A DNA stretch of 64,000 nt, from positions 1 to 64,000 of IMG/VR virus record IMGVR_UViG_3300028532_000002; one strand, written 5' to 3'. Under the pieces are notes generated by a model that made no database searches, was not told the DNA's origin, and saw only the letters and a list, made by a program, of their open reading frames with translations. Each line of letters begins with the position of its first letter. Position 1 is the stretch's first letter. The translations under genes were made by a program, and so were the position numbers. The DNA comes from a virus. Taxonomy: Duplodnaviria > Caudoviricetes. Below are positions 842 to 45,366 of the stretch, one piece after another.

Positions 842-896
842 CTGTCCCCCCACTATACATAGCCGGGGGGACAGTTTCAACATGGCGGGGGGACAG
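842..896 (-). promoter_or_regulatory. Promoter/operator cassette copy 1 (TTGAAA-17-TATAGT with three CTGTCCCCCC boxes)
   Basis: Minus strand: CTGTCCCCCC gccatg TTGAAA CTGTCCCCCC ggctatg TATAGT GGGGGGACAG. Confidence 0.85.
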
Positions 897-1125
897 AAAT
901 GACCCTCCGTGCAGCCGCCGTGTGCGCCGGGCACAGGTCCGGCTTCCCCTTCGCCCTGTTCTTCGCGCTGGTCGGCATCCGCCACCCGGCCCGGCGGGCG
1001 AGGGGCCGCAGCTCCTTCACGTTCCGCACGGCCCCCCGGGGCGGGTAGTACTCCACGCACCCGGGGGTGTCGCACGAGGCGGTCCACAGGGGGCCGTCCT
1101 CGTCCTCGCCCGGCCCGACGGCCAC
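877..1125 (-). CDS. Small Cys-containing hypothetical protein
   Basis: C-terminal part of ORF 877..1530 (CDTPGC...CPAH); GTG just after ssb stop; stop codon lies in the -35 box of cassette 1. Confidence 0.5.
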   Translation of the reverse strand: MAVGPGEDEDGPLWTASCDTPGCVEYYPPRGAVRNVKELRPLARRAGWRMPTSAKNRAKGKPDLCPAHTAAARRVISVPPPC

Positions 1126-1127
1126 GG

Positions 1128-1667
1128 TCAGAAGGGAGGCTCGTCGGAGAACCCGCCGCCCCCGCCTCCGCCTCCGGCGGCCCAGGGGTCGTTCTGCGGC
1201 GGGGGCCCGCCGGCCTGCCCGCCTCCGAACCCGCCGCCCTGGTTCCCGTAGCCGCCGCCCTGCTGGGCCGGGCCGCCACCGAAGCCACCGCCTCCGCCCT
1301 GGCGCTGGGTCTTGGTGACCTTCGCGGTGGCGCTGCGCAGTGCCGGGCCGACCTCCTCGACGTCGATCTCGAACACGGTCCGCTTCTCGCCCTGCTGGGT
1401 CTCGTAGTTGCGCTGCTTCAGCCGCCCCTGGACGATGACGCGCATGCCGCGCTGGAGGGTCTCGGCCACGTTCTCCGCGTACTGCTTCCACACGGTGCAG
1501 GTGAGGAACATGGACTCGCCGTCCTTCCACTCCCCCGACTGTTTGTCGAAGGTGCGCGGGGTGGAGGCGACGCGGAAGTTGGCGACCGCGGCGCCGCTCG
1601 GCGTGAAACGCAGCTCGGGATCGTCCACGAGGTTGCCCACGAGGGTGATCATCGTTTCGCCTGCCAT
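1128..1667 (-). CDS. ssb: Single-stranded DNA-binding protein
   Basis: Actinobacterial SSB signature ([32 protein letters not shown]), Gly-rich linker, acidic tail FSDEPPF. Confidence 0.97.
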
Positions 1668-1669
1668 GG

Positions 1670-1945
1670 TCAGGACTCCTTCTCGGTGTTGGGGAACAGC
1701 GGGTTGTGGGTGGCGTCGAGCTCCAGCGCCTCGGACTGCGCGAACATCCACGCGGGGGCGTCCTTGGGGCAGCGGACGACCTTCCCGGCGCGCAGCCACC
1801 CCCACGACGCCAGCTCGGCGCTGACGGACGCGTCGTCGGGGTTGTCGAACAGGGCGTCGGTCTCCGTCTCGAAGTGCTGGTAGACGGCGTCGCAGCCGTC
1901 CTCGTCGCACACGGCCACGTAGAAGGTGCGGGGCTGGAGACCCAT
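1670..1945 (-). CDS. Hypothetical protein (CDEDGC ... CPKD)
   Basis: ATG overlapping upstream stop; contiguous with ssb. Confidence 0.6.
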
Positions 1946-2217
1946 CACGACCCGCCGACCATGTCGTGGGGCTCCTGCGTGGCGTCTTGGTGGCCCATCC
2001 CGTAGGAGACGTAGGACGTGTACACGAGGAGGGCGACCCACGCCGCCACGTCGACCAGGACGTAGGCCAGACTCTGGTCGGTCCACAGCACCTCGGTGAT
2101 CAGCCGGGCGGTGCTGCCGCCCGCGATGATGGCGAACAGGGTCCCGGCGATCGCGATCGTCCGCTCCGGCTGGGCCTGCGAAGGGTCGCGGTTGTCGGTC
2201 GTCGGCGGCGCGCTCAC
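1945..2217 (-). CDS. Small membrane protein (2 predicted TM segments)
   Basis: C-terminal part of ORF 1945..2775; hydrophobic stretches; RBS GGAGG. Confidence 0.6.
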
Positions 2218-2885
2218 CGTCCACCTCCGTCGGGCAGGCCGCGGGGCTCGACGCGGCCGTGCCGGTAGTGCGGGTACGGGTTGGGGACGCGCACGGCCAC
2301 GCGCTGGTGGCGGTCGAGTTCGTTGCCGTCGGCGTCGTGGTGCTGTTCGTTCTCGTGCGCTTGGACCCACGCCTTCTCGTGGGCGTCGAACTCCTCCTGG
2401 GTGGGGTTCTCCGGCGGGCGCGGGATGCGGACGCTGTCGAGCGTGGAGGTCACCCCGGCGGCCTTCGCCTCTTCCGCAGTGAGTTCGTCCACGGCCACCC
2501 ACTTGCAGGTGTTGACCTGGAAGTCGGGGTGGTCCATGTGGGAGTAGGCGGCGTACAACTGCTCCAGGCGGTGGACGACGTCGAGCTGCCACCAGGTGGG
2601 CATGTGCTCCAGCAGCACCCGCGGGATGACGAGGTAGTTCGAGTAGGTGAGGGAGAACCACGTCGACACGTCGTGGCCAGTGCCCTGGGCGGGGTCCTCC
2701 AGGCGGTCGGCCATCTGGTCGAGGTAGTCCTGGACGGCCTCGGGGGCGTGGTGCGCCTCCTGGGTCTGCCCGCACTGTCGGCCGCCGTTGAGGACGACTC
2801 CGCAGTAGTCGTCGTCCTCGTGGCCAGCGATGGGCTGGTACTCGTGGCGGAGCCGGAGGGTCAGGTCATCCAGGTCAACGAGCAT
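2214..2885 (-). CDS. Hypothetical phage protein
   Basis: MLVDLDDLTLRLRHE..., RBS GAAGGAG, overlapping gene chain. Confidence 0.7.
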   Translation of the reverse strand: MLVDLDDLTLRLRHEYQPIAGHEDDDYCGVVLNGGRQCGQTQEAHHAPEAVQDYLDQMADRLEDPAQGTGHDVSTWFSLTYSNYLVIPRVLLEHMPTWWQLDVVHRLEQLYAAYSHMDHPDFQVNTCKWVAVDELTAEEAKAAGVTSTLDSVRIPRPPENPTQEEFDAHEKAWVQAHENEQHHDADGNELDRHQRVAVRVPNPYPHYRHGRVEPRGLPDGGGR

Positions 2886-2887
2886 GG

Positions 2888-4208: not shown

Positions 4209-4273
4209 CGGGTGCTCCTGTCGTGAGGGGGCCCGGGGTGCGCTGCGGGTGCGCGCCCCCGGGGCAGGGCGGG

Positions 4274-5334: not shown

Positions 5335-5411
5335 GGCCGTGTCCTTCCTGGGCGGTGAGCGTGAGGGGCCCCTGCCCCCGAAGGGGCCTTGAGGGTCACT
5401 GAGGTTACTTT

Positions 5412-7297: not shown

Positions 7298-8001
7298 GCC
7301 GCACGCCCCTGCCCGTTGATCTCGGCCGCGAGGCGCGCGCGCTGGCGGGCGTTCTGGCGGCGGTCCTCGCCCTCCACGACGGCCCGGTTGGTGACGAACT
7401 CGCGCATGCGCGACTCCACCCGGTCGCCGAAGCGGGCCTTGAGCTCGCCGGGGGTCACGTTCGAGGTGATCAGGGTCGGCAGGCGGCGCGGGTTGCGGTG
7501 CTCGATGAGCCGGTAGTTGACCTCCTCCACGAACTGGGTGTCCTTGGTGTTGGCCCCCAGGTCGTCCAGGACCAGGAGTGGTGCTCCGGCGATGGAGCGG
7601 AACTCGGCCTCGGAGTCGATGCCGTGGCGCGGGCGCAGCCGGGCGTAGAGCTCGGGGCCGTTGACGAACACCCACGGGCAGCGGATACCGGAGACCGCGA
7701 GCGCGCGCAGCGCCCCGTAGGCCTGGTAGGTCTTCCCGCGTCCGACCAGGCCCATGATCATCAGGGTGGGGCCCTTGCGGATGGCCAGCATGTCGGAGCG
7801 GGACCCCTCGACGGCGGCGGTGACGATCGCTTCCACCCAGGCGATGACGTTGGGGTCGTCGGCGACGGCGTTCGCGTACATGTCGGGGACGGTCTCCTCG
7901 ACGCGCCGTGCGGCGGCGTCGCGGGCCACCTGGGCAGCGATGGGGTCGGCGTCGCACAGGTCCTCGACGCGGATGATGGTCGGGTCGGTGGGCTGGATCA
8001 T
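7294..8001 (-). CDS. DnaC/IstB-like AAA+ ATPase (helicase loader)
   Basis: Walker A GLVGRGKT, Walker B LLVLDDLG, TLITSN, RVESR; directly after replication initiator. Confidence 0.92.
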   Translation of the reverse strand: MIQPTDPTIIRVEDLCDADPIAAQVARDAAARRVEETVPDMYANAVADDPNVIAWVEAIVTAAVEGSRSDMLAIRKGPTLMIMGLVGRGKTYQAYGALRALAVSGIRCPWVFVNGPELYARLRPRHGIDSEAEFRSIAGAPLLVLDDLGANTKDTQFVEEVNYRLIEHRNPRRLPTLITSNVTPGELKARFGDRVESRMREFVTNRAVVEGEDRRQNARQRARLAAEINGQGRAA

Positions 8002-9131
8002 TACCACTCCTCGTGGAAGGCGGATGAGTCGGTGGGGCCGGCGTAGGGCACGTGGCCGCCAGCGGCAGGACGGAGCTGGACGACGTTGTCGCCCGCGCGG
8101 CTCATGTCGCGCATGGGCCAGGAGCCCTCCCACATGCCGTCGGAGAGCCACTTGGAGGACTTCACGGCGTAGTGGAGTTCCTCAGGGGTGGCGCCCTGCC
8201 ACATACGGCCGTAGAGCTGGGCCCCGGCGACGATCTCCCGGGCGTCCGTGCCGTCAGCAATAGCGCGGGACCAGGCGCGGCGGGCGCCGTCCTTGTCGGT
8301 CTTCTTGGGGTAGGCGTCCCAGAACTCGACGAAGAACGGGTCATCCTTCTTCTTCGCCCGTGGCTTGGGAGCGTCCTCGGTGCCGCCGAAGAGATCCGGC
8401 GCGCCACTTGGCGCGTCAGCGCCAGGCTGCGTAGCAGAGGTAGTTACCTGTTCCCCTGTTCCCCTGTTCCCCTGTTCCCCTGTTCCAGGGCCGGAGCTGT
8501 GCGGAGCTTCCGCCGCGCCGGGGCGGACATTGTCGGAAGTTCCGCTACTCCCCTGTTCAGGGCGGGTTTCGTGGTTGGATCGGGAGTCGTTCTCCTGGTT
8601 CTGTTCGGGGGCGGTGCCCTCGTGCCGCGCCTGGACCTCAGGGGCCTTTGCGGGGGTCTGCGCCGGGTCGTTCCCGGGCTCCGCAGAGGGCCCAGAATCT
8701 TCCGCCGCACCGCGTCGGAGATTGTCGGAAGTTCCGCCCCTTCGCTGGTCACGGGCCAGGAAGTCCCACGGTTCGCCCTTATCGGGGGCGGGGTACTTCG
8801 ACTGGGCGGTCCGCTCGTTGCGCTGGTGCCGCTTCCAGGAGGGGATGGCGTAGTAAGGGCGTCCACCGACCTTGTAGAACTGCACTCCGAACAGGTCGCG
8901 GACCTGGGCGAGGGTGTTCTTGAACCCAGCCATGGTGGCGACCTCCGGGGCGTCCTCCTCCTCGTCGAAGGGGAACGCGAACCCCTGGAGCTCACGGAGC
9001 TGGCAGGTGCCCCTCCCCGCGTCGTCTGCCCAGTTCCACATGGCGATGAAGAGCAGACGCGCCCAAGGGCTGATGGTTTCGATGCCGGGACTGCTCCAGA
9101 ACTCCGGCTTCGTGGTGCGGATACGCGGCAT
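8001..9131 (-). CDS. Phage replication initiator protein (lambda O/DnaD-like organisation)
   Basis: MPRIRTTKPEFWSS...ARLLFIAMWNWADDAGR N-terminus, low-complexity linker, C-terminal FVEFWDAYPKKTDK; paired with DnaC-like gene. Confidence 0.85.
   Translation of the reverse strand: MPRIRTTKPEFWSSPGIETISPWARLLFIAMWNWADDAGRGTCQLRELQGFAFPFDEEEDAPEVATMAGFKNTLAQVRDLFGVQFYKVGGRPYYAIPSWKRHQRNERTAQSKYPAPDKGEPWDFLARDQRRGGTSDNLRRGAAEDSGPSAEPGNDPAQTPAKAPEVQARHEGTAPEQNQENDSRSNHETRPEQGSSGTSDNVRPGAAEAPHSSGPGTGEQGNRGTGEQVTTSATQPGADAPSGAPDLFGGTEDAPKPRAKKKDDPFFVEFWDAYPKKTDKDGARRAWSRAIADGTDAREIVAGAQLYGRMWQGATPEELHYAVKSSKWLSDGMWEGSWPMRDMSRAGDNVVQLRPAAGGHVPYAGPTDSSAFHEEW
8447..8486 (+). repeat. Tandem 8-bp repeat (CCTGTTCC) x5 inside replication gene
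   Basis: Read directly from sequence; encodes GTGEQGNRGTGEQ. Confidence 0.85.
8508..8737 (+). repeat. 38-bp direct repeat pair (8508-8545 and 8700-8737), candidate iterons
   Basis: 34/38 identical, core ATTGTCGGAAGTTCCGC, 192 bp apart. Confidence 0.7.
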
Positions 9132-10897: not shown

Positions 10898-10952
10898 CTG
10901 TCCCCCCACTATACACAGACGGGGGGACAGTTACAAATAAATGGGGGGACAG
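10898..10952 (-). promoter_or_regulatory. Promoter/operator cassette copy 2 (TTGTAA-17-TATAGT)
   Basis: Minus strand: CTGTCCCCCC atttat TTGTAA CTGTCCCCCC gtctgtg TATAGT GGGGGGACAG. Confidence 0.85.
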
Positions 10953-11164
10953 TTTGGGGTGTGTGGCCACGCACCCCTGCCACCAGCACGAACAGCCGCC
11001 GCAGCCTCCCCGAAACCCAACCGCTCCAACTCGAGCACCACCCGTGCCCGCTCCTGCGCCCGCGTCCGCGCCACGAACCCCTCCACCCGCGCCACCTGCT
11101 CACGGGACGCCGACGTCGGATCGAACTCCGCCGCTTGGAGGGCCGCATCCACAACCGCGCTCAC
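10931..11164 (-). CDS. Hypothetical protein
   Basis: GTGA overlap with upstream gene; stop TAA lies in the -35 box of cassette 2. Confidence 0.45.
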   Translation of the reverse strand: MSAVVDAALQAAEFDPTSASREQVARVEGFVARTRAQERARVVLELERLGFGEAAAAVRAGGRGAWPHTPNCPPIYL

Positions 11165-17049: not shown

Positions 17050-17325
17050 TCAGGCCGCGCGGGTGCTCGGCTCAACGGCGGTCGTCGCGGGGACGCACAT
17101 GCGGGAGATCTCGCGGGCGACGCTGGGCGGGAGCGGGCCGACGATGATCGAGCCCAGACGGCCGACCAGTGCGGTACTCCACGCCTGCCCCGGACGCGGC
17201 GGCCCGGTCAGGTACTTCACGTACTCCTCGCGCGGGGTGCCGGTGTAGGCCACCGACGCCTGAATGTGCGGCTCACACTCGGCCAGGAACGCGGTCAGGT
17301 CAGGGGTTTCGGTCGGCCCGCTCAT
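17050..17325 (-). CDS. Hypothetical protein
   Basis: ATGA overlap with Cro-like gene. Confidence 0.6.
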   Translation of the reverse strand: MSGPTETPDLTAFLAECEPHIQASVAYTGTPREEYVKYLTGPPRPGQAWSTALVGRLGSIIVGPLPPSVAREISRMCVPATTAVEPSTRAA

Positions 17326-17570
17326 GCCGATTCGCCAAGTTCTGTGCCGTCGGCCGTGGGGAGGGTGGGGAAGCTGATGTCCTCCAGCTCCGCAGCGAGC
17401 GCGTCGGCGATCCCTACCGCCGTTTCCGGCGCGGCGCGGCGCTTCCCGCGCTCGATCCGGGAGATCGACGACGGCGTGACACCAGCGACATCAGCGATCT
17501 CGCGCTGTGTCAGGCCTGCCTTCTTCCTCAGCTCCCGCACGGCCAAGCCGTAGATTTTTCGTGTCGCCAT
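17322..17570 (-). CDS. Cro-like XRE-family HTH regulator
   Basis: VRELRKKAGLTQREIADVAGVTPSSISRIERG; divergent from repressor-like gene. Confidence 0.92.
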   Translation of the reverse strand: MATRKIYGLAVRELRKKAGLTQREIADVAGVTPSSISRIERGKRRAAPETAVGIADALAAELEDISFPTLPTADGTELGESA

Positions 17571-17590
17571 GAGGGCACTCTAGGGGACTT

Positions 17591-17750
17591 CTGGGCACAT
17601 TCACAACCCTTGAAGGGTTCTTTTGGGTTCATGCGGAGTCCCAAACCCCACCAGTAAAGTTGGGAACTTTTTTGCACCCGGCTATCCGTCGAGAATCCTT
17701 ACGGGGTAGCATCTGCGCGAGACTGGGGCCCGAGCCCAAATGTGCCCAAA
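17591..17750. promoter_or_regulatory. Divergent switch region with palindrome AACCCTTGAAGGGTT (17605-17619) and operator copy B (17614-17633)
   Basis: AT-richer intergenic region between divergent HTH genes; inverted ATGTGCCCA copies at ~17592 and ~17740. Confidence 0.65.
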
Positions 17751-17786
17751 GGGCCCCTTCGGGGGGTGAATCGCGAAGGAGCGAGC

Positions 17787-18359
17787 ATGACTGACACGCC
17801 TGAACTCGACTACTGGAAGCGCATCGCAAGTTGCCTACAGCGACAGCGCGTAACGCTGCACCCCGACTACGCGGTGCGTCGGGCGTGGATCAAGCACACC
17901 GTCCCTCTCGGACTGAAGAAACGGGTCGTGGACGACCTGGAACAAGGAGCCCGCGGCAACTTCAAAAAGTCGACACTCGCCCTGGCCGAACGGCTCTATG
18001 GTCTGCCTGAGGGGTGGATTACCGACTCCCTCGAATCGATGCGCGCCGGCGGAGACCCCCTCCCTCTCCCCGAGCAGCCCGTCTCCCACACCGGCCCCAT
18101 ACTTGTGCCCGCAGGACAGCACCCGCCGGGCCATCAAGGCGAGCCAGCGCAGATACTGCGCGGCATCCCTCCCCTGGAGAAGGACGAGAAGCTCACCGTC
18201 TGGGACTCCGGAGACGGCCGGCTGGACTACGAGTTCGTGAAGAAGGAGATCCCTGGAGCCCGGTCGCCCGTGACGCTCACCGCGGACTACCCGGCCGAGG
18301 ACACCCTGGAGGCCGTGGTGCGGCGCCTACGCCACACGGTTCTCGGTCTTCACAGGTGA
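17787..18359 (+). CDS. Putative immunity repressor (degenerate XRE-like HTH plus C-terminal domain)
   Basis: VVDDLEQGARGNFKKSTLALAERLYGL resembles actinobacterial XRE recognition helices; position between cro-like gene and integrase. Confidence 0.6.
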   Translation: MTDTPELDYWKRIASCLQRQRVTLHPDYAVRRAWIKHTVPLGLKKRVVDDLEQGARGNFKKSTLALAERLYGLPEGWITDSLESMRAGGDPLPLPEQPVSHTGPILVPAGQHPPGHQGEPAQILRGIPPLEKDEKLTVWDSGDGRLDYEFVKKEIPGARSPVTLTADYPAEDTLEAVVRRLRHTVLGLHR

Positions 18360-20547: not shown

Positions 20548-20906
20548 ACCGGCCGCACCCAGGCGAGCCTCGTGTAGGGCAGTTACGCTGGCCCCGTGCC
20601 CGCCCGTGGCAGCCACCCTGTGCCCGGCAGGGCCGCGCCCGTTCGCCGTCGCACATATCGGGGAAGATCTATGGCCCCTCACCAGCCCAAACGTGCGCTC
20701 TGCGGTGCATGGCGCGTACTGAGTGTGGCGGAAGCTCGTCAAGACTGAGGGCATGGGGCTATAGTAGACCCCGAATCACCACACTAAGAGTTCTTCGCCT
20801 TGCTGAAGAACCCTTAATAGCACCTTAAATATGTGCGCCCCCGGGCGGTGCGGACACACCACCTGAGGGCTGACCCGCCCCTGAGCACACCAGGAGACGA
20901 GCTGTG

Positions 20907-21556: not shown

Positions 21557-21802
21557 GTGTCCGACACCGCGACTGCCCGCAGTGTCGGGCCCCACACCCA
21601 GCTCGGTCCCGCCTGGACCCGGCTGCCGACCAACCCCGAGCGCTCCCGCGAGGCCGCCGACCGCGCCCTGGCCGAGTGCCAGGTCGACCCGACCACGGGC
21701 CTGTGGCCGTCGGGTCGGGGCCCCTCCCCGTCGTGGCAGCGGCTGATCAAGGAAGCCGCTGCGGCGGCTACGGCGGCCGACGAGGAGGAGATCGCAGCAT
21801 GA
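21557..21802 (+). CDS. Hypothetical protein
   Basis: GTG with GGAGG RBS after GC hairpin. Confidence 0.55.
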   Translation: MSDTATARSVGPHTQLGPAWTRLPTNPERSREAADRALAECQVDPTTGLWPSGRGPSPSWQRLIKEAAAAATAADEEEIAA

Positions 21803-29771: not shown

Positions 29772-29948
29772 CTACTGGACGCGCACCGCCGCGAGGAGAG
29801 CGGTCCACTCGGGGGCCGGGGCCTCCAGGTGGCCCAGTTCCCGGTTCTGGGTGTCCCGCATCAGCGTCTCGAAGCCCTCGCTGACCTCGACGCAGTTCCC
29901 CGATCCGCTGCTGTAGCTGGCTTTGTGCCACGTGCGGGTTTCATTCAT
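29772..29948 (-). CDS. DUF397-family protein (Scr2-like)
   Basis: WHKASYSSGSGNCVEVS...RDTQN...EWTALL signature. Confidence 0.92.
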   Translation of the reverse strand: MNETRTWHKASYSSGSGNCVEVSEGFETLMRDTQNRELGHLEAPAPEWTALLAAVRVQ

Positions 29949-30760
29949 CGTCCACCGACCTCTCGCAACATCGTGAGTGTCGCGGCTTCCGAAAGGGCCT
30001 CTCCTTGGAGAAGACCAAACGTGGTCGCGCACTCCTGGTATCGATCCATATCGCTGATGACCGTCTCCCCGGTCATATACTCCGCCGATGCCACGGGGGG
30101 CTCGTCCGCGAAGGTGTACAGCCTGAAAGCGCCACCACTGCCGTAGTGACGCCCCGTGCTCCGGGGGATGATCTGAACCCTGACCTTACCGCTGTCCATG
30201 TCGTCGAGGACCCTCTGCACCTGATTTGTCAGCAGCTCAGGGCCGCGCGCTCCGACCTGCTGGTGGAGGACCGCTTCGCCGAGGAGGCACAGGACCAGGG
30301 GGCGGGGTTCTTCGTCCAGGAGACGCTGTCGCGTCATGCGGTTGTGCACGAGCTGATCGACGGCGGATGAGGGCATGCCGGGGAAGATGTCCTCGAAGAC
30401 CGCGCGGGCGTAGTCCTCGGTCTGGAGCAGGCCGGGGATGACGAGTGGCTGGAAGTCGCGGATCTGGGTGGCCGCGGTCTCCAGCTCGGGCAGTTCCGCG
30501 AATCGGAACGGGGTCTGCACCTGGCGGCGGACCTTGGCCCATTCGTCGGCCAGGCGACCTCCGGCCTTGAGGTGCTCGTCGAGCTGGTTGATGTACTTCT
30601 CGTCGACCTTGCGGGATCCCGTCTCCCACGAGGAGTAGTAGCTGCCCACGACGTCGAGTTTCTTGGCGACGTCGATTTGCCGCAGGTTCAGGTCCTCGCG
30701 GTGCTTCTTCATCTGCTTCCCGAAGTGCTTCCATGCCGGGTCGGTCGGGCGCTTCGACAT
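29945..30760 (-). CDS. XRE HTH + DUF5753 regulator (Scr1/WhiJ-like)
   Basis: N-terminal HTH, then FQPLVIPGLLQTEDYARA...ALSEAAT; ATGA overlap with DUF397 gene. Confidence 0.93.
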   Translation of the reverse strand: MSKRPTDPAWKHFGKQMKKHREDLNLRQIDVAKKLDVVGSYYSSWETGSRKVDEKYINQLDEHLKAGGRLADEWAKVRRQVQTPFRFAELPELETAATQIRDFQPLVIPGLLQTEDYARAVFEDIFPGMPSSAVDQLVHNRMTRQRLLDEEPRPLVLCLLGEAVLHQQVGARGPELLTNQVQRVLDDMDSGKVRVQIIPRSTGRHYGSGGAFRLYTFADEPPVASAEYMTGETVISDMDRYQECATTFGLLQGEALSEAATLTMLREVGGR

Positions 30761-36007: not shown

Positions 36008-36994
36008 CTACTTCGGCCAGTAGAAGACGTCCGCGGTGGCCGACACGACCTTCGCGGCAGCGTCCCCGTACTGGACGACGCGGACCCGGACCCGGCGGCC
36101 CTTGGCGAGGTTGCCCTTCCAGCTGTAGGTGAAGTGGCCGTTGCCGCCGGCGTGCACGGGGCTGTCGATGGGCCGGTTGCGGGCGTACACCCACGACCCC
36201 TTGCCGTCCTGTTCGTACTCGGTGGCGCGCAGCTGCACCTCCGCACCGGCGGACAGGTCGGCGATGGTCACCCCCACGGAGAAGTCGTAGAGGGCGCCGT
36301 CCTTCTCGTTGACGCCCACCAGCGAGTACAGGCTGCCGGTGGAGGTGCCGCCGTGGTCGGCGTCGACCACGGTCTCGAACTCCAGGGAGGTCCACTCGCC
36401 GGGGTTGAGGGTCTGGGTCCGGTCCTTCTCGAACCGGCGGTGTCGGGGCATGCCGTCTTCTCCCTTGTCGTTATCGGTGAAGCTCGTGGGCGGCTTCGCG
36501 AACGTGCCGTCCTCGACGAGCCGGTAGGCCCTGGCGCCGGGGCACGAGGTGGAGATGAAGTCGCGGTGGCCGAGCACCTTCCCGGAGATGGAGGTGTCCG
36601 GTTCCATCAGCCACTGGCGCAGCTGGCGGACGGCGTTGATCTGCTCCGGGGTGATCTCGTCGTTCGGGCCCGTGGCCAGGGTCACCGAGTAGTGCGAGGT
36701 GTTGCCGCCGGGCTGGGCGGCCTGCGCCCGGTACAGGCCGCGCCCCTCCAGGACGTAGCCGTGGCTGCACGCCATCCAGCTGTAGCCGATGTCCGCCCAG
36801 CCGCGGGACGGCCCGGTATGGAAGCGACGGGTGTTGCGCCAGTACGTGATGCAGGCCGAGTGATCCTTGTCGGCGAGGCCCTGGTCGGCGCTGTCGTAGT
36901 GGATGACCAGACCCGATCGGGGGTTGGCCCTCTCGGCGGGCGTCGACCCCCAGCCGAGGTCGGCGCGAGACACGTACTTCGTGGGTATGGGCAT
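36008..36994 (-). CDS. Endolysin, N-acetylmuramoyl-L-alanine amidase (Amidase_2/PGRP-like)
   Basis: LVIHY, WADIGYS, LEGRG, GHRD...TSCPG zinc-amidase motifs; C-terminal putative binding domain. Confidence 0.92.
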   Translation of the reverse strand: MPIPTKYVSRADLGWGSTPAERANPRSGLVIHYDSADQGLADKDHSACITYWRNTRRFHTGPSRGWADIGYSWMACSHGYVLEGRGLYRAQAAQPGGNTSHYSVTLATGPNDEITPEQINAVRQLRQWLMEPDTSISGKVLGHRDFISTSCPGARAYRLVEDGTFAKPPTSFTDNDKGEDGMPRHRRFEKDRTQTLNPGEWTSLEFETVVDADHGGTSTGSLYSLVGVNEKDGALYDFSVGVTIADLSAGAEVQLRATEYEQDGKGSWVYARNRPIDSPVHAGGNGHFTYSWKGNLAKGRRVRVRVVQYGDAAAKVVSATADVFYWPK

Positions 36995-37009: not shown

Positions 37010-37480
37010 TCAGGACAGGGGCGGCAGCGGGGTGACGGTCTCCACCGGCCCCGGCGGGCCGGGCGGCCCGGGTGGGCCCTGCGGACCTTCGGGACCCTGA
37101 GGTCCGGCAGGCCCCGGGACACCGGGGGCGCCGGACGGACCGGCCGGGCCCGGGGCGCCATCGGCCCCGCTCTCCCCGTCGGCGCCGTCGCCTCCGGGGG
37201 GTCCGCTCGAACCGTCGTCGCCGTCCCTCCCGGAAGGTCCGGGGCGGCCGGGCGGGCCGGACGGGCCCGGCACAGGAATCGGGGTGGAGGTCGGCGGCGG
37301 CACCGGCGTTCCGCCGAGCTGCTCCACCTGCTGGGACAGCTCCTCGCGGTGCTGCTCGGCGTCGGACAGGCGCTGGGCCTGCTGCACGGCCGCGCCGATC
37401 AGGGCCGCCAGCACCCCGTAGAGGACGAGGAGAGCCAGGACGTACAGGATGCCGGCCGCACGTACTCGTCTCCGGGTCAT
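37010..37480 (-). CDS. Membrane-anchored collagen-like (Gly-X-Y) protein
   Basis: N-terminal TM, about 20 GXY triplets; within lysis cassette. Confidence 0.85.
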
Positions 37481-38567: not shown

Positions 38568-38578
38568 TGTTTCCAGGG

Positions 38579-39195: not shown

Positions 39196-39542
39196 GACTC
39201 CTCCTGCTGAGCCCGGGCGAGTTGGGCGCGCAGGTCGGCGACCTCGCGGGCCCACTCCACGACAGTGTGCTCCTTCAGGTGCGCCTCCAGGACACGCTCG
39301 GTGGTCGCCGCGGTTCGCCGGTGCACGTCTGCGGCCAGCTGCGCCAGGGGCACGCTTCCGAACCCCGGTACGACGGAGAGGTCCGCGGGCAGGGGCTCCT
39401 CGGTGTGCAACCAGGTGCAGGCCGAGATCGGGCAGTGCCTGACCACGGTCGGACCGGTGAGGACGCCGCCGCGCCGGAACGCCTCCACGTTGCCGGCCTC
39501 CTGCGCCTCGCGTCTGCCGGCCTTCGGGGCGCAAGCGTTCAC
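39192..39542 (-). CDS. Hypothetical protein
   Basis: 116-aa ORF, GTGA overlap. Confidence 0.6.
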   Translation of the reverse strand: MNACAPKAGRREAQEAGNVEAFRRGGVLTGPTVVRHCPISACTWLHTEEPLPADLSVVPGFGSVPLAQLAADVHRRTAATTERVLEAHLKEHTVVEWAREVADLRAQLARAQQEES

Positions 39543-40126
39543 TGCTGGACCCAGGCGTCGACCTTGCCGTACTCGCGCAGGTCGTCGATCAGATCCGCAG
39601 CGCCCTCGACTCCGGCTGCGGCCTGGCCCTCCAGGAAGGGGATCAGGTCCTTGTCGAGGGTGAGTATCGAGCCGACGACGCCGTCCGGCGCGATGCGCTG
39701 GATGAGGGTGTGGAGGAGTTGCTGCGGGATGGTGACCCGAACGCTCCGAGCTCCTGCTGTGTCCTCGATGTCGAGGACCCGCAGGAGGTCGCGGGCCGCA
39801 GTGATGGCCAAGTCCGCGCGGGCGTTGTCGCGGAAGCCGCCCCCCGTGTACTGCTCGGTGAGGAGTTCGACGACCTCCCAGGGATCGACCTGCGGGGCGC
39901 CCTCGGAGAGGGGGTGCCCGTAGATCTCGACGCGCTCCTGGAGGACGTTGGTCAGGGTGATCTTTTTGGCGCCCGCGGGCAGGGCCTCGGTCTCCGCTTC
40001 AGCGCGGGCGAGGGCGGGGGTCCAGATCTTGTCGGTGATGCGGACGTTGCGCTTGGGGGTGGGCCCGTCGGGGCTGGGTGTGCGAGGCATGCGGCCAGTC
40101 TCGCATGTGGGGGTACGGCTCGTCAT
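39539..40126 (-). CDS. Putative DNA-binding regulator with N-terminal ribbon-helix-helix-like segment
   Basis: TPKRNVRITDKIWTPALARAEAE resembles Arc/RHH strand-helix; start 40126 or 40090; divergent from cassette 3. Confidence 0.55.
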   Translation of the reverse strand: MTSRTPTCETGRMPRTPSPDGPTPKRNVRITDKIWTPALARAEAETEALPAGAKKITLTNVLQERVEIYGHPLSEGAPQVDPWEVVELLTEQYTGGGFRDNARADLAITAARDLLRVLDIEDTAGARSVRVTIPQQLLHTLIQRIAPDGVVGSILTLDKDLIPFLEGQAAAGVEGAADLIDDLREYGKVDAWVQQ

Positions 40127-40165
40127 TTTTGTCCCTCCATGTGCTGTGTCTGTCCCTACGGGGGA

Positions 40166-40204
40166 TTGAACCTGTCCCCCCATCTGACTATACTGGGGGG
40201 ACAG
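40166..40204 (+). promoter_or_regulatory. Promoter/operator cassette copy 3 (TTGAAC-17-TATACT)
   Basis: TTGAAC CTGTCCCCCC atctgac TATACT GGGGGGACAG; upstream box degenerate (CTGTCCCTAC at 40150). Confidence 0.8.
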
Positions 40205-40228
40205 AAACAGTCAAGGGGAGGAACCACC

Positions 40229-40561
40229 ATGGGGATCCAGTTCTGCGCCGCCGCCGACCGTCCGGCCGCCCCCGTGGTGGACGTGAACGCCTTCCACGGG
40301 TCGCGCCTGCTGCGCCTCCTGGGCCTGCCCGTCGAGCCGGTCGGCGACGTTCCGGCCGCCGAGCTGCGCGAGCGCGCCACGCTCGCCATCGCCATGTGCG
40401 AGGCGGGCGAGGCGCACGCCGACGGCGAGGCCGGGGCCGCCCTGGAGTCGGCCGCGCGCGGCGCGGACCCCTCGCACCTGCGCATGCGCCTCGTGGAGCT
40501 GCTCGGCGTCGCCGAGTGGGTCCGCGAGCACCGCCCCGGCGGCCCCGTCACCTGGGGCTGA
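40229..40561 (+). CDS. Hypothetical protein
   Basis: ATG with GGAGG RBS immediately after cassette 3. Confidence 0.7.
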   Translation: MGIQFCAAADRPAAPVVDVNAFHGSRLLRLLGLPVEPVGDVPAAELRERATLAIAMCEAGEAHADGEAGAALESAARGADPSHLRMRLVELLGVAEWVREHRPGGPVTWG

Positions 40562-40625
40562 CCCCTCCCCCACCACACACCCCACCGGGGCGGCCCCACC
40601 GGGCCGCCCCAGGAAGGACACTCCC

Positions 40626-41159
40626 ATGCACGACATCTCCGACCGCCTGCTGAACCGCCTGGTCGAGGCCGTCAAGGAGGCCGAGCGCACCGGCGTCTAC
40701 GCCCACCTGCCCGCGAAGACCCCGGCCGCGTCCCGTGAGGCGCTCCTGCGCCGCGAGCTCGTCTACCGCAACCACGTCGAAGGGCGGTGGGAGCTGTCGC
40801 TGGAGGCCGTCGGCATGGCAGAGGAGGAGATCGAGCGCCGCGCCCACGACGCGGCCGAGGAGGCTGCCCGGCCCGCCCTCCAGGCCGCCGCCGACCGGGT
40901 GTTCCTCGCCCAGTGGGCGGGCCTGCCCGGGGAAGAGGAGTTCCGCGCGGTCGCCCCCGCGCGGGGCGTGCGCACCCACGAGGCCCGGTGTGCCGACAGG
41001 GCTCTGCGGCCGACGTGCGCCGAGCCGGGCCGGAGCCTGCGGACGAACTTCCTCCCCACCGACGCCGACATCACCTGCCCCAAGTGCCGCAAGCGACGGG
41101 CGCTACGCGCCGAGAGCCGCGCCGAGCTGGCCGCCGCCCGCGCCCGGCTCGCCGTCTGA
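40626..41159 (+). CDS. Hypothetical protein with CxxC
   Basis: Hairpin + GAAGGA RBS; ITCPKC. Confidence 0.65.
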   Translation: MHDISDRLLNRLVEAVKEAERTGVYAHLPAKTPAASREALLRRELVYRNHVEGRWELSLEAVGMAEEEIERRAHDAAEEAARPALQAAADRVFLAQWAGLPGEEEFRAVAPARGVRTHEARCADRALRPTCAEPGRSLRTNFLPTDADITCPKCRKRRALRAESRAELAAARARLAV

Positions 41160-41212
41160 CCCCACGAACCGTCGGGGCGGCCGACCGGCCGCCCCGCAGA
41201 AAGGACACCGCC

Positions 41213-41764
41213 ATGACCAGCACCCCCTCCTGGACCCCGCCCCGCGCCATGGTCGACCTGCTGGAAGAGGCCACCCGATTCGGCCGCAACTCCTCGGTGA
41301 CCCACGCCACCGATTCCGGCGGCGCACCCTTCGTGACCGTGCGTCTGTCGTGGCAGCGCGAGCGCCAGGACTACCCGGTCGAAATCCGCGCGACGTGGCA
41401 CACCCGCACCACGGGCACGTACCGACTGAAGTCCGCCATCGCCCGGTGGCCGGGGCAGGACTGGGTGGACGTGAGCCTCACCCGCGCACAGGCGCTCGTG
41501 GCCGACGGCCAGGAGCTTCAGCCCGCCCCCGAGGAGGCCCCCGACCCGGCGCAGGAGTGGGCGCGGGTGTGGGGTAACCCCTACCTGGCCGGGGACGTAG
41601 GGGGGCGACTGACGTGCGAGGAGACGGAGGTGGTCGCCGACCTCCTCGCGACCCTGGGAATGCCGGACCGGGGGTTGGCGTGGCTGGTGGAGCACGCCCA
41701 GGATGATGACGAGGGCGACAGTCACTGGGACCTGCGCCAGCAGTACCCGCTTGGGTGGATCTAA
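41213..41764 (+). CDS. Hypothetical protein
   Basis: Hairpin + GAAAGGA RBS; ends 1 bp before cassette 4. Confidence 0.65.
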   Translation: MTSTPSWTPPRAMVDLLEEATRFGRNSSVTHATDSGGAPFVTVRLSWQRERQDYPVEIRATWHTRTTGTYRLKSAIARWPGQDWVDVSLTRAQALVADGQELQPAPEEAPDPAQEWARVWGNPYLAGDVGGRLTCEETEVVADLLATLGMPDRGLAWLVEHAQDDDEGDSHWDLRQQYPLGWI

Positions 41765-41765
41765 C

Positions 41766-41821
41766 CTGTCCCCCCATTTGAGTTGCAACTGTCCCCCCAT
41801 TTGTATATAGTGGGGGGACAG
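41766..41821 (+). promoter_or_regulatory. Promoter/operator cassette copy 4 (TTGCAA-17-TATAGT)
   Basis: CTGTCCCCCC atttgag TTGCAA CTGTCCCCCC atttgta TATAGT GGGGGGACAG. Confidence 0.85.
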
Positions 41822-41856
41822 CAAGCGGGGGAGCCCGCCGAGACCGGGGAGACACC

Positions 41857-42183
41857 ATGGCCGAGAAGTACGAGTTCAGCGGGCGCACCATGACCGTCCA
41901 CGAGTACCGCGCCCTGGACACCCGCCGCCCCTACGCGGTCGTCGACATCGACGGCGTCCCCGTCTGGCTCACCCTGGACGCGCACGGCCTGCTCTCCACC
42001 TCCGTCCGCCACCCCGAGGGCATCAACGCCGGGGCCGACGTCCTGTGGGACCTGCGCGGCTCGGGCCTGGTCGACCTGGTCTGCCGGGGCACCTCGGCCG
42101 AGGCCGACGACACCGAGTCCTGGCTGGGCCCCGTCCCCGTCCGGCTGCGCCCGTTCACGTCCCGCGCCACCACCTGCCCGTAG
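41857..42183 (+). CDS. Hypothetical protein
   Basis: First ORF after cassette 4; GGAG RBS. Confidence 0.65.
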   Translation: MAEKYEFSGRTMTVHEYRALDTRRPYAVVDIDGVPVWLTLDAHGLLSTSVRHPEGINAGADVLWDLRGSGLVDLVCRGTSAEADDTESWLGPVPVRLRPFTSRATTCP

Positions 42184-42238
42184 CCGCCCCGCCCGCCCCC
42201 TCTCCGGGGGCGGGCCCCACCCCCACCGGGAGCACCCC

Positions 42239-42739
42239 ATGGCCACCGCCGTCCGCGCCACCCGCGCCGCCACCAGCCCCGTCGTCGGCCACTACGTCAC
42301 CGTCACGGTCACCGACACCGACTGGGACACCGGGCAGGCCAGCGGGACCCGCACCCTCTACCGCGCCTACCTCGCGGACGGCACCCCGGCGGGGTCCCCG
42401 ATCAGCTGGGGGAACGGACTCGCCCCCGACACGAACGCCTACCCGACCGAGGCCAAGGCGCGCGCCGGGATCCGCCGCGCCCACCGCCACCTCACCGAGA
42501 TCCGCGCCGAGCTCGACACCCTCCGCGCCGAGGCCGCCGCCCGCGCCGAGGCCGTCATCTCCGTCGCCCCGGTGGCCGACGAGTCCGGCCGCGAGGTCGG
42601 CACCGTCCGCGAGCGCCGCGACGGCCGCTACCTGGCCGCCCTGCCCGCCGCCGACGGGAGCGGCTACCTGCCCGTCCAGGTGTGCGACACCCACACCGAC
42701 GCCGAGGCCGCCGTCCACGCCCACCTGAACGGGAGCTGA
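42239..42739 (+). CDS. Hypothetical protein
   Basis: Hairpin + GGGAG RBS. Confidence 0.65.
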   Translation: MATAVRATRAATSPVVGHYVTVTVTDTDWDTGQASGTRTLYRAYLADGTPAGSPISWGNGLAPDTNAYPTEAKARAGIRRAHRHLTEIRAELDTLRAEAAARAEAVISVAPVADESGREVGTVRERRDGRYLAALPAADGSGYLPVQVCDTHTDAEAAVHAHLNGS

Positions 42740-42741
42740 CC

Positions 42742-43122
42742 ATGAACCCCACGACCGCCCGCCGCCTCTCGCGCGGGCTGACCGGCGACGCGCGCGCCAT
42801 CGCCCGCGCGGCCGAGCGCCTCCTGTCGCTCCGGCCGGACCGCCCCACCTCTCCGAGCCCGCACGCGCGCATGGCCGCCGCCCTGTACGCCCTACACGCC
42901 GCTCGCGCCGCCACCGAGGGCCCCGGGCCCACCTGCGAGCAGTGCCGCAAGGGCGTCGACCTCGACACCGGCCGGTGCGCCTGCCCCGGCCGGGCGTGGG
43001 GCCTGCCCGTGGTCGACGTCGTCCCTGACGCGGTCGGACTCCCCCGGTGGGAGGGCCGCCCCGAGCGGGCCCCGGCGCGGCTGGTCGCCGCCGGGTTGCG
43101 CCACGGCTACCACCTGTCCTGA
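42742..43122 (+). CDS. Hypothetical protein with zinc-finger-like motif
   Basis: CEQC...CAC. Confidence 0.55.
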   Translation: MNPTTARRLSRGLTGDARAIARAAERLLSLRPDRPTSPSPHARMAAALYALHAARAATEGPGPTCEQCRKGVDLDTGRCACPGRAWGLPVVDVVPDAVGLPRWEGRPERAPARLVAAGLRHGYHLS

Positions 43123-43167
43123 ACCCGCGGCCGGCGCCCGCCGACCGCCATCTGAGAGGAACTCACC

Positions 43168-43455
43168 ATGCAGCAGCTTCCGATCCGCGTCCGCGCCAGC
43201 GTCGTGCAGGACGCCATCGACGCCCACCCGACCCCGGCGGCCGAGTGCGCGTGGGCCGAGACCCGGTTCGCCGTGGCCTCCAGGCCCTCCAGGAGGGCGG
43301 CCACCCGCGCCCCGCACCGGATGGCCCCGGGGTCGTTCAGCACGCCGCAGGGAATGCGCCACTCGGCGCTGTGCGCGGACTGCCCCTATCGGACGCCGCC
43401 GACGGTGACACCGGAGGCCATGGACGCACTGGTCGAGGCGCACGAGGCCGGATAG
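43168..43455 (+). CDS. Hypothetical protein
   Basis: GAGGA RBS; CADC. Confidence 0.5.
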   Translation: MQQLPIRVRASVVQDAIDAHPTPAAECAWAETRFAVASRPSRRAATRAPHRMAPGSFSTPQGMRHSALCADCPYRTPPTVTPEAMDALVEAHEAG

Positions 43456-43501
43456 TCGGCCTGATCTGCCTTTGACCTGCGGGGATACCCCCACCGCCAA
43501 A

Positions 43502-43557
43502 CTGTCCCCCCATTTATGTTGATACTGTCCCCCCACTGGGTTATAGTGGGGGGACAA
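43502..43557 (+). promoter_or_regulatory. Promoter/operator cassette copy 5 (TTGATA-17-TATAGT)
   Basis: CTGTCCCCCC atttatg TTGATA CTGTCCCCCC actgggt TATAGT GGGGGGACAA. Confidence 0.85.
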
Positions 43558-43578
43558 GAACGGATGAGGGAGACGGAC

Positions 43579-43965
43579 ATGGCGAGCACCACCAAGAACA
43601 CCGAGACCAACACCCCGCGCTGCGCCCGCTGCGCCCGCGTGCTCACCAGCACCACTTCCATCGCCCGTGGCATCGGCCCCGGCTGCGCGACCATCCTGCG
43701 CCGCGAGGCACGCGCCGAGTACCGCGCCCACCAGATCGAGTCCGCCCGCGAGCTCATCGCTGACGGCGGCATCGCCCACCTGCGCAGCGCGGTCTACCTC
43801 ACCGTCTCCACCGACGGCACCCGCGTCCACCGCACCACCACCACCCACTGCACCTGCGACGCCGGTATCCGCAACGGCCGCTGCTACCACTCCGCAGCGG
43901 TCCGCATCATCACCGCCCTGTCCCTGGCCCGCCCCGCCCGCCCCGCCCACACCCTCGCCGCCTGA
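43579..43965 (+). CDS. DUF6011-like zinc-binding domain fused to SWIM-like zinc finger
   Basis: RCARCARVLT...SIARGIGPGC and CTCDAG...CYH. Confidence 0.7.
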   Translation: MASTTKNTETNTPRCARCARVLTSTTSIARGIGPGCATILRREARAEYRAHQIESARELIADGGIAHLRSAVYLTVSTDGTRVHRTTTTHCTCDAGIRNGRCYHSAAVRIITALSLARPARPAHTLAA

Positions 43966-44019
43966 GCCCGCCCCCGGCGGCCCCGCACACGGGGCCGCCA
44001 CCCCGGATAGGAACCCCCG

Positions 44020-44325
44020 ATGACCGCCACCGCCCGCGAGATCGCCGTCCGCACCGCCACCGAGTTCGCCCGCATGGCCGAGGCATGGGAGGACGCCACC
44101 GACGCCGATGGCGACACCAGCCGCCGCCTGGCGACCCTCCTGCGCACCGGCACCGCGTGGCCGACCGGCCCCCGGTCCGTGGCCGCCACCGTCACCGGGA
44201 CCGACGCCGCCCTGTGGGGCTACACGGCCGGACAGGTCCTCGACGCCGCCGCCGACCTTGACGAGGTGTTCACCACCGGCCAGATCACCGAGACCGCCCC
44301 CGGTTCTTGGCACCTCACCTGGTAA
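44020..44325 (+). CDS. Hypothetical protein
   Basis: Hairpin + AGGA RBS. Confidence 0.6.
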   Translation: MTATAREIAVRTATEFARMAEAWEDATDADGDTSRRLATLLRTGTAWPTGPRSVAATVTGTDAALWGYTAGQVLDAAADLDEVFTTGQITETAPGSWHLTW

Positions 44326-44383
44326 CCGCCCGGGGGGGTCGCGCCCGTCCGCGACCTTCGCCCCCTCCCCGAAGGAGAGTTCG

Positions 44384-44767
44384 ATGCACCCCGCCAACAC
44401 CACCGTGATCATCGTCCGCGCCACCAGAAACAAGCCGTTCGAGGTCGTGCGGCGCAACGGCCGGTTCCGTGTCCGCGACTCGCGCACCGGTCGGATGATG
44501 ACCGGCCAGCTCCCCAAGGCAGACGCCGTACAGATGGCCAACTATCACAACCGGCGCACGCCGGGCCCGTGTGTGGCCGCTGCCGGGGGTCATTCCGTGA
44601 GGCGGTCGCCGTCGGGGCGGTACTGGGAGGTTCTCGACCCTGACGACATTCCGATCAAGGAACTGGCCTCCCCGACCCGTAGGGAGGCACTGGCCAGGGT
44701 CGACGCGATGCTTGCCACGCGAGCCCTGACAGCTATTGAAACCACCGAGGAGATCCACCATGTCTGA
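44384..44767 (+). CDS. Hypothetical basic protein
   Basis: GAAGGAG RBS. Confidence 0.6.
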   Translation: MHPANTTVIIVRATRNKPFEVVRRNGRFRVRDSRTGRMMTGQLPKADAVQMANYHNRRTPGPCVAAAGGHSVRRSPSGRYWEVLDPDDIPIKELASPTRREALARVDAMLATRALTAIETTEEIHHV

Positions 44768-45296
44768 CCGCACCGACCACGTTCTGAGCGCCATCGACCA
44801 CGCCGTTTCCGACTGGGAGGTGGGCCCCGACGCCATGCGGTCGATGCCCGACCTGCCGCCTGCCCCCGAGGTGGACGCGCACGCGCTGGCCACCGACGCG
44901 GCCGTGCGGGCACTGAGCGACGCCCTGGACCGGTCGGGCACCACCCGGGCCGGGCTGATCGAGGCCGGCCACCTCGTGGAGGCCCCGGCTGGCATGGCGG
45001 CAGAGGCCGGGTGGACGGTGCCCGTCGCCGTCACCCGGGCGCTGTGGCTGGACATGGTCGAGTGGCCCGACTCCGAGGCGTGTCCGCAGGACGAGTCCGG
45101 GCGGTGGTGGGATGTGCTGTGGATGAGCGCGTTCGCGGCCCGCCGGAACCGGGCCCGAGGCGGGATGGTGCGCGCGGGACTGTTCCGGGTGCCGCGCGGC
45201 GGGATGGTGGCCGAGAAGGTGACGGTGGAGGTGTCGATCGGGCCGGGCGACGACGGGGGTCCGGCGGTGACGCTGTCGCTTCCGCAGGAGGGGTGA
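44760..45296 (+). CDS. DUF6573-like protein
   Basis: EAGWTVPVAVTRALW.D.VEW...QDESGRWWDVLWM motif. Confidence 0.65.
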   Translation: MSDRTDHVLSAIDHAVSDWEVGPDAMRSMPDLPPAPEVDAHALATDAAVRALSDALDRSGTTRAGLIEAGHLVEAPAGMAAEAGWTVPVAVTRALWLDMVEWPDSEACPQDESGRWWDVLWMSAFAARRNRARGGMVRAGLFRVPRGGMVAEKVTVEVSIGPGDDGGPAVTLSLPQEG

Positions 45297-45310
45297 CCTG
45301 CCATCCAAAT

Positions 45311-45366
45311 CTGTCCCCCCACATGACTTGAAACTGTCCCCCCATCTATATATAGTGGGGGGACAA
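45311..45366 (+). promoter_or_regulatory. Promoter/operator cassette copy 6 (TTGAAA-17-TATAGT)
   Basis: CTGTCCCCCC acatgac TTGAAA CTGTCCCCCC atctata TATAGT GGGGGGACAA. Confidence 0.85.

Follow-up and report, generated by a model that had tools for sequence, protein, structure and literature searches.

The DNA analysed here, termed the window, comprised the first 64 kb of the IMG/VR virus record IMGVR_UViG_3300028532_000002 (Duplodnaviria; Caudoviricetes), which has a length of 81,051 bp and 71% G+C. The last 126 bases of the record (80926-81051) recurred at 7-132, indicating a closed circular assembly of about 80.9 kb, though IMG/VR lists it as linear. An open reading frame (ORF) at 2-187 on the minus strand ran on across the circle junction into 80267-80911. 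The element is an uncultured temperate siphovirus of a Streptomyces-like host, roughly 81 kb in size, and carries a serine integrase gene at 19021-20532. Genes were called by third-position G+C (GC3). The window held six copies of a cassette, P1 to P6, in which the -35 and -10 hexamers of a promoter are interleaved with copies of an asymmetric, C-rich box of 10 bp, CTGTCCCCCC. All six had been proposed in the initial annotation, and all were present at the given places with the given layout.

Each cassette was composed, in this order, of box 1, 6-7 nucleotides of variable sequence, the -35 hexamer, box 2, seven further nucleotides, the -10 hexamer and an inverted box 3. Box 1 was located 6-7 bp upstream of the -35 hexamer. 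Box 2 abutted the -35 hexamer inside the spacer, which was 17 bp long in all six copies, and box 3 abutted the -10 hexamer and covered the discriminator and the start region. The distance of 22-23 bp between the direct boxes was reproduced, with a step of 22 bp from box 1 to box 2 in copies 1 and 2 and of 23 bp in copies 4-6. From box 2 to box 3 the step was 23 bp in every cassette. Two cassettes were located on the minus strand. P1 (842..896) comprised box 1 at 896..887, TTGAAA at 880..875, box 2 at 874..865, TATAGT at 857..852 and the inverted box 3 at 851..842. P2 (10898..10952) comprised box 1 at 10952..10943, TTGTAA at 10936..10931, box 2 at 10930..10921, TATAGT at 10913..10908 and the inverted box 3 at 10907..10898. 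The other four were located on the plus strand. The core of P3 held TTGAAC at 40166-40171, box 2 at 40172-40181, TATACT at 40189-40194 and the inverted box 3 at 40195-40204. Its upstream part, with which it spans 40129..40204, contained the degenerate boxes TTGTCCCTCC (40129-40138) and CTGTCCCTAC (40150-40159). The upstream box of this copy had been described as degenerate, which CTGTCCCTAC bears out; the full cassette nevertheless begins at 40150 and not, as given before, at 40166. P4 (41766..41821) comprised box 1 at 41766-41775, TTGCAA at 41783-41788, box 2 at 41789-41798, TATAGT at 41806-41811 and the inverted box 3 at 41812-41821. The corresponding elements of P5 (43502..43557) were found at 43502-43511, 43519-43524 (TTGATA), 43525-43534, 43542-43547 (TATAGT) and 43548-43557, and those of P6 (45311..45366) at 45311-45320, 45328-45333 (TTGAAA), 45334-45343, 45351-45356 (TATAGT) and 45357-45366. 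The stop codon of the upstream ORF had been placed inside the -35 hexamer in copies 1 and 2. In copy 1 this was the case, with TGA at 879-877 within TTGAAA at 880-875. In copy 2 a stop codon was likewise present, but it probably belongs to another ORF. The TAA in the -35 hexamer ends a probable 77-aa ORF, 11164..10931, with a GTG start that overlaps the preceding stop codon (coupled). A 197-aa ORF is the less likely owner of this TAA; its 5' half was out of the coding frame by GC3.

Exact copies of CTGTCCCCCC were found 15 times in the window, as opposed to 0.68 +/- 0.91 expected from 100 shuffles (maximum 5), about 20-fold over chance. All 15 fell in the six cassettes. Two further cassette boxes, box 3 of P5 and of P6, differed by one mismatch (TTGTCCCCCC). 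The motif scan was extended, as had been suggested, to the full genome, and also to two actinobacterial genomes. In the phage, exact boxes lay exclusively in the cassettes, but for one stray copy in coding DNA at 80139 of the 81,051-bp genome, and no enrichment was seen in the two actinobacterial genomes, where the density was about 2 per Mb, compared with about 200 per Mb in the phage. The description of the regulon as genome-wide was not upheld, as there were only six sites and no cassette in the remaining 17 kb. One-mismatch boxes outside the cassettes numbered six, below the chance count for the whole window, and additional weak boxes acting as stoperators were rejected on this ground.

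Promoters of the sigma-70/HrdB type were defined by a TTGACA-like -35 hexamer and a TATAAT-like -10 hexamer, 16-18 bp apart. A scan of the whole genome for the consensus gave eight sites, against about two in shuffles. Seven of them were the six cassettes and a reverse promoter in cassette 3; the eighth, at 20736-20765, was unrelated. The cassette hexamers matched the consensus in 9-10 of 12 positions. Near-consensus hexamers with a 17-bp spacer and a G-rich discriminator are expected to be recognised strongly by the host holoenzyme. A Shine-Dalgarno sequence and an ATG followed on the same strand 21-40 nt past box 3 at each cassette, and the segment between box 1 and the -35 hexamer was A/T-rich in four copies, against the 71% G+C of the genome. 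Transcription would be predicted to start about 7 nt after the -10 hexamer, at the end of the G run. It is highly probable that the cassettes function as promoters. The claim that they are strong and of the host type agreed with these data insofar as they were the strongest sigma-70/HrdB-like candidates in the genome by sequence; their strength and activity are predictions.

Conservation was limited to about 60 bp, and the flanks were unrelated and diverged at once. Mean pairwise identity among the copies was 0.93 for box 1, 1.00 for box 2, 0.95 for box 3, 0.94 for the -10 hexamer and 0.79 for the -35 hexamer, compared with only 0.26 and 0.43 for the two spacers. The first genes downstream of the cassettes were not paralogues, and segmental duplication as the cause of the conservation was rejected since the downstream genes were unrelated. 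The box arms showed no compensatory change while the neighbouring bases were randomised. The identities of 0.93-1.00 in the boxes against 0.26-0.43 in the spacers, together with the lack of compensatory arm changes, suggest that the box sequence itself, and not merely pairing, is under selection. Conservation far above that of the spacers is what a sequence-specific binding site, as assumed in the initial annotation, predicts. The boxes were also conserved beyond their surroundings while overlapping the core promoter, abutting both the -35 and the -10 hexamer, as would be expected of operators. That they serve as the operator of a protein is rather probable. G-quadruplex or i-motif structures were rejected by eye, as there were never four runs on one strand.

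The cassettes headed several gene blocks. P1 leads the gene 803..246 and a block that crosses the ends of the record to about 77.2 kb. P2 leads small ORFs and then the replication module with the initiator (9131..8001), a DnaC/IstB-like loader, a C5 methylase and a single-stranded DNA-binding protein (SSB). P3 leads the genes 40229-41764, P4 the genes 41857-43455, P5 the genes 43564/43579-45296 and P6 the genes 45397-47821. Together, P3-P6 preceded 17 small genes (40.2-47.8 kb), which were almost without family matches. This rightward island of small genes ended at 47821, and the final gene of the late operon, which converges on it, lay at 47892. Between them, at 47843..47881, a hairpin with a stem of about 15 bp (by eye) was located, which is likely a two-way terminator bounding the island. 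Outside the window, at 79167-79487 on the minus strand (L014:15167-15487), a 106-aa protein with a T7 gp5.9 RecBCD-inhibitor domain (PF25708, E 1.4e-12) was encoded. A 41-aa stretch of this protein resembled the product of 80267-80911, and both genes were located downstream of P1. The cassettes had been said to point into runs of short uncharacterised genes and to form a host-takeover regulon. Small genes of this kind followed P3-P6, but P2 leads the replication module and P1 the block with the gp5.9-like domain. The regulon is early in character, and the term host takeover is only partly apt.

Cassette 3 differed from the others by a second promoter. On its minus strand, at 40214..40187, a consensus promoter (TTGACT, 16 bp, TATAGT) pointed into the gene 40126..39539. 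The -10 hexamer of this reverse promoter overlapped that of P3 by 4 bp, and boxes 2 and 3 of cassette 3, a perfect inverted repeat, framed both divergent promoters. The leader of the divergent gene contained the two further degenerate boxes at steps of 21-22 bp, of which TTGTCCCTCC covered the ribosome-binding site. The gene (39539..40126, minus strand) encodes a protein of 195 aa with an Arc-like ribbon-helix-helix (RHH) domain and a C-terminal extension, and is the first in a four-gene leftward operon that extends to 38579. The profile phrog_6506, 'Arc-like repressor', was matched by all nine family members (best E 1.8e-12), among them the protein itself with an E of 3.9e-4 over residues 19-49. 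In an alignment-based monomer model (pLDDT 76.5), an extended segment was followed by two helices, at 32-47 and 58-70. Relatives were lacking at the 90%-cluster level, whereas a full HMMER search gave eight, which shared the N-terminal pattern MPRPxxGxTPKRNxRIxDSxWxPALERAxAEG. No sequence relative was found in the PDB and no lead in the Atlas, and relatives were likewise not found in viral or metagenome contigs, GenBank phages or 167 genomes of one genus. Among 401 genomes of the family Streptomycetaceae, four contained short matches to the N-terminal RHH part only. A small RHH gene in the Streptomycetaceae locus L025 (~1420-1500) lay behind a TTGTCA-type promoter with a copy of the direct repeat TTTGTACTTACAGAA on either side, and another in L023 lay behind a TTGTCA-type promoter with one TTTGTACTTACAGAA-like box upstream of the -35 hexamer. 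An arrangement of this kind is what is commonly seen when a repressor controls its own gene and lies next to its principal target. Of the four binders that had been proposed, only the product of 39539..40126 gained support, as an Arc-like RHH protein. It is the best repressor candidate because its divergent promoter shares the box 2/box 3 inverted repeat of cassette 3. That it binds the boxes is plausible but somewhat doubtful.

Based on these observations, the six cassettes would be copies of one early promoter read by host RNA polymerase with HrdB or another sigma factor of the sigma-70 type. A sequence-specific phage protein would occupy the boxes and shut the six promoters together by occluding RNA polymerase, in the lysogen, after early expression, or both. 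The RHH protein would be autoregulated via cassette 3, with its own promoter back-to-back with P3 and sharing the same box 2/box 3 inverted repeat. The regulon would consist of the 17 small genes (40.2-47.8 kb), the replication module leftward from 10.9 kb and the gp5.9-like block leftward from 0.8 kb. We infer from the sequence that a protein binds the boxes, that it would repress rather than activate, and which protein it might be. A phage-encoded repressor is favoured because the arms lack compensatory changes amid randomised neighbours, so that the box sequence appears to be read. The spacer, the start region and the segment just upstream of the -35 hexamer are positions at which polymerase is kept out by a bound protein. 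A factor of the phage and not of the host was argued because the box was not enriched in the two actinobacterial genomes and the inverted-repeat pattern occurred at most once per genome in the 401 Streptomycetaceae genomes. The whole proposal, six strong host-type early promoters, each interleaved with a three-site operator and co-repressed by a phage protein with the RHH protein as first candidate, stands at about an even chance.

Several points weigh against it. The RHH assignment was based on profile matches, and the Pfam hits (Arc, NikA-like and VapB) were all weak and confined to single members. Comparison of the model with the PDB by Foldseek gave nothing convincing, and a wide VIA-align comparison reached a Z score of at most 4.7, which fell in the C-terminal part. 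A step of 23 bp from centre to centre is wide for cooperative RHH dimers; the sites of Arc, CopG, MetJ and omega are adjacent or contiguous. Five other DNA-binding proteins were encoded, a Cro-like helix-turn-helix (HTH) protein, a WhiB-domain protein, an XRE-DUF5753 protein, a LexA-type winged-helix protein and a DUF433 protein. A relative carrying a different version of the box, in which protein and site might be seen to covary, did not turn up in the collections searched. Finally, the box 2/box 3 hairpin could account for part of the conservation.

The last point leads to the strongest rival explanation, which takes the cassettes as counterparts of the promoter-early stem-loop (PeSL) cassettes of the T4-type phages RB49 and phi1. 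These are repeated strong sigma-70-like promoters with polyG/polyC stem-loops, mostly between the -35 and -10 hexamers or over the -10 hexamer (PMC2839356; Arbiol et al. 2010). The gene before a PeSL has its stop codon within the cassette, and small ORFans come after it; transcription from upstream ends at the stem-loop, and modules are shuffled via the repeats (PMC2839356). Applied to the present phage, the cassettes would be constitutive early promoters with a stem-loop of box 2/box 3 or box 1/box 3 that ends upstream transcription and insulates modules, with the identical repeats as recombination points and without a dedicated regulator. The window did contain a sigma-70-like promoter with an overlapping stable stem-loop, repeated among small ORFans. 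The likeness extends to the many copies of promoter and G/C stem-loop, the upstream stop codons in or beside the cassettes and the Shine-Dalgarno sequence and start codon after them. In read-through RNA, box 2 and box 3 would form a G/C stem of 10-13 bp over the -10 hexamer, and cassette segments of 75-76 nt had folding energies of -28 to -36 kcal/mol (z-scores -2.1 to -4.2). However, the stems were identical in six copies, without compensatory or G-U changes, while adjacent spacers were randomised, and arm changes were limited to box 3 of P5 and of P6, where they make the stem less stable. The third, direct box at its fixed phasing of 22-23 bp is not required for a hairpin, the degenerate boxes in the RHH leader have no hairpin role either, no U tract followed the stem, and the link to the RHH gene is not accounted for by a hairpin alone. 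The cassettes also differed from PeSLs in the lack of any sequence relation, in the high-G+C actinobacterial instead of proteobacterial host, in arms of identical 10-mers in all copies with the additional direct copy upstream, and in one cassette that is common to a divergent regulator gene; terminator and shuffling roles are only putative here. A cassette acting in this way alone is unlikely. Operator and terminator functions could coexist, and a combined element of consensus promoter, operator and tail-less terminator for upstream transcription was conceived, in which a long RHH protein would bridge boxes 23 bp apart, two direct and one inverted, via its C-terminal domain and thereby loop or wrap the promoter. 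This combination is speculative and clearly improbable. It has not been described for actinophages and would be new there; if true, one module of 55 bp would insulate the early, replication and anti-defence blocks, place them under common control and be a portable junction for gene shuffling.

Other explanations retain a bound factor and assign it differently. The boxes might be bound by another phage protein, with the RHH gene as merely one of the regulated genes, which we regard as rather unlikely. Candidates are the Cro-like HTH protein (17322-17570), the XRE-DUF5753 protein (29945-30760), the LexA-type winged-helix protein (genome positions 74073-74708) and the product of 17742-18359. Repressors that act as monomers on asymmetric sites occur in actinophages (PMC9283540) and in phage P1 (PMC8546580), and the 23-bp spacing is atypical for RHH proteins. 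Yet no candidate gene adjoins a cassette; the RHH gene alone has an intergenic region with operators in common with one. The Cro-like gene has a different palindrome of its own, AACCCTTCAAGGGTT, in the intergenic region 17571-17740, where it overlaps a promoter (TTGTGA, 18 bp, TAGAGT; by eye). The predicted start would coincide with the ATG, giving a promoter of the leaderless type; the region is a putative second control region with a different operator, in agreement with the earlier separation of the cassettes from the Cro/repressor switch. A positive factor might instead be recruited by the boxes, for example the 274-aa WhiB-domain protein, which would turn the cassettes into delayed-early, activator-dependent promoters. 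This protein has a C-terminal extension of about 190 aa and is encoded immediately upstream of P2. WhiB-like proteins act through sigma region 4, and box 1 is positioned just upstream of the -35 hexamer, with an A/T-rich segment in between in four copies. However, an activator seems unnecessary where hexamers and spacer (17 bp) come close to the consensus to begin with, the boxes in the spacer and over the start site occupy classic repressor positions, and the C-rich box is unlike AT-hook targets; activation is very improbable. Least of all would a host transcription factor be expected to bind the boxes and tie the early genes of the phage to a host signal, a reading that is hardly credible. 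It draws on a palindrome, TGTCCCCCC-N13-GGGGGGACA, whose arms and spacing equal those of the phage boxes. As a single conserved copy, it precedes a gene for a small membrane protein in 5 of the 401 Streptomycetaceae-family genomes and in one metagenome-assembled genome (MAG). At these loci (centres of L029-L033) the palindrome was a perfect hairpin, CTGTCCCCCCACGG-GKCTA-CCGTGGGGGGACAG, with arms and spacing as in box 2/box 3 of the phage. This hairpin with arms of 14 bp was, however, located about 100 nt after a stop codon, as a terminator would be. It was present once per genome in few genomes, independent hits were at about the chance level for palindromes, and the box was not enriched in those genomes. 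The host hairpin is probably a terminator and its match to the cassettes a coincidence.

Co-repression of repeated early promoters by a phage protein would have precedents. In the Streptomyces phage phiC31, the c repressor acts on conserved inverted repeats of 17 bp that accompany a set of conserved early promoters. These promoters are not known to follow the -35/-10 consensus, and the repeats form compact palindromes. The likeness is in logic only: a temperate Streptomyces phage with one repressor at many conserved sites beside repeated early promoters. The C1 repressor of phage P1 has 22 dispersed, asymmetric operators of 17 bp (PMC8546580), and the repressors of cluster A mycobacteriophages (L5 type) have dispersed asymmetric operators and stoperators (PMC9283540, PMC6550527). 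In both, as putatively here, a single phage repressor reads a short asymmetric site that recurs throughout the genome, early promoters included. In the present genome the sites were found only in promoters, three in each, in both orientations and with fixed phasing, and the candidate binder is an RHH protein and not an HTH monomer. Stoperators are many asymmetric sites in short intergenic stretches, oriented with transcription and away from promoters, whereas 15 of the 16 exact boxes lay in promoters and in both orientations. Stoperator-like intergenic or intragenic sites were not found in the 81 kb; the lone stray exact copy lay in coding DNA. Cluster O mycobacteriophages (Corndog group) have over 30 copies of a 17-bp dyad, TGTTCGGNNNCCGAACA, besides 8-9 strongly predicted SigA-like promoters (PMC4351075). 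They resemble the present phage as actinophages with few consensus host-type promoters and a short invariant repeat, but their repeat is a compact palindrome separate from the promoters, while here it is built into every promoter. In archaeal viruses and in Aca systems, the latter controlling anti-defence operons, one regulatory sequence precedes many small early genes, which a small DNA-binding protein of the virus probably shuts off (PMC11065993). A conserved strong promoter with a regulator site before small, unrelated early genes is common to both, and one block here contains the gp5.9-like anti-RecBCD domain. Here, by contrast, the regulator is divergent from the regulated operon, the replication module belongs to the same regulon and the promoter is bacterial; an anti-defence role is putative.

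Related cassettes were not detected. Scans of IMG/VR and the JGI metagenomes for the exact cassette pattern gave no homologous cassette, and among 185,579 species genomes the pattern was matched three times, one of these in a Treponema MAG, each time by a long perfect hairpin and not by a homologous cassette. A blastn search of one cassette against GenBank phages and a megablast search of 8 kb gave no homologue. In 50 loci that share the replication initiator, no box was present and none had three or more consensus promoters. The layout, two direct boxes and one inverted box at 22-23 bp that abut both hexamers, with one bidirectional copy shared with a regulator gene, was not found described.

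The remaining gene content was arranged as follows. Leftward, on the minus strand, the Cro-like HTH gene (17322-17570) was followed by a YqaJ-type exonuclease, RecT, RusA, the WhiB-domain protein and P2. Small ORFs, the replication initiator, the DnaC/IstB-like loader, the C5 methylase, the SSB and P1 came next. The order continued with uncharacterised genes, the T7 gp5.9-like domain, the LexA-type winged-helix protein, the terminase and the virion genes down to 47.9 kb. The closest named phages were the Streptomyces phages Zuko and KimJongPhill, with 41-42% amino-acid identity in a tail protein. A cassette of the present type was not found in Zuko. Its arm of small leftward genes (64-75 kb) contained about ten copies of a different intergenic repeat around GGTATGCCGGGTATCC. 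Within the replication-initiator gene (8001-9131) of the present phage, four tandem copies of GGAACAGG were located at 8452-8487, and the GGAACAGGGGAACAGG repeat of this gene was also present in more than 20 of 50 related viral loci. These repeats are probably origin iterons that have been conserved in a broad group of phages. The region 29772-30760 (minus strand) encoded a protein with an XRE-type HTH and a DUF5753 domain (E 1.4e-48), followed by a 58-aa ORF, a layout resembling the WhiJ/BldB-type pairs of Streptomyces, here phage-borne. The 694-aa protein encoded at 22540-24624 (plus strand) had no match in a phmmer search against PDB sequences. An Amidase_2 endolysin candidate at 36008-36994 (minus strand) adjoined a protein with collagen triple-helix repeats (37010-37480). 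ARAGORN called a 90-nt tRNA-Gln(CTG) at 21935-22024 (plus strand), inside the ORF 21799-22245, where Rfam gave no tRNA at the gathering score; this call is probably spurious. Searches for known RNA families gave no hit in the window, in the remaining part of the genome or at the locus of the host palindrome.

The control logic as such is well known from phages P1, L5 and phiC31 and from PeSLs, and the value of the finding lies mainly in the layout of the cassettes and in the candidate RHH regulator. Six defined sites and one candidate regulator make up a compact regulon, each with a definite prediction that can be tested. Through the cassettes, the early genes can be told apart among the many small uncharacterised ones; early genes are the class in which anti-defence and host-takeover functions are usually found. 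If the proposed repression is true, a very strong promoter that is tightly shut by a small repressor may also be a possible tool for Streptomyces genetics.

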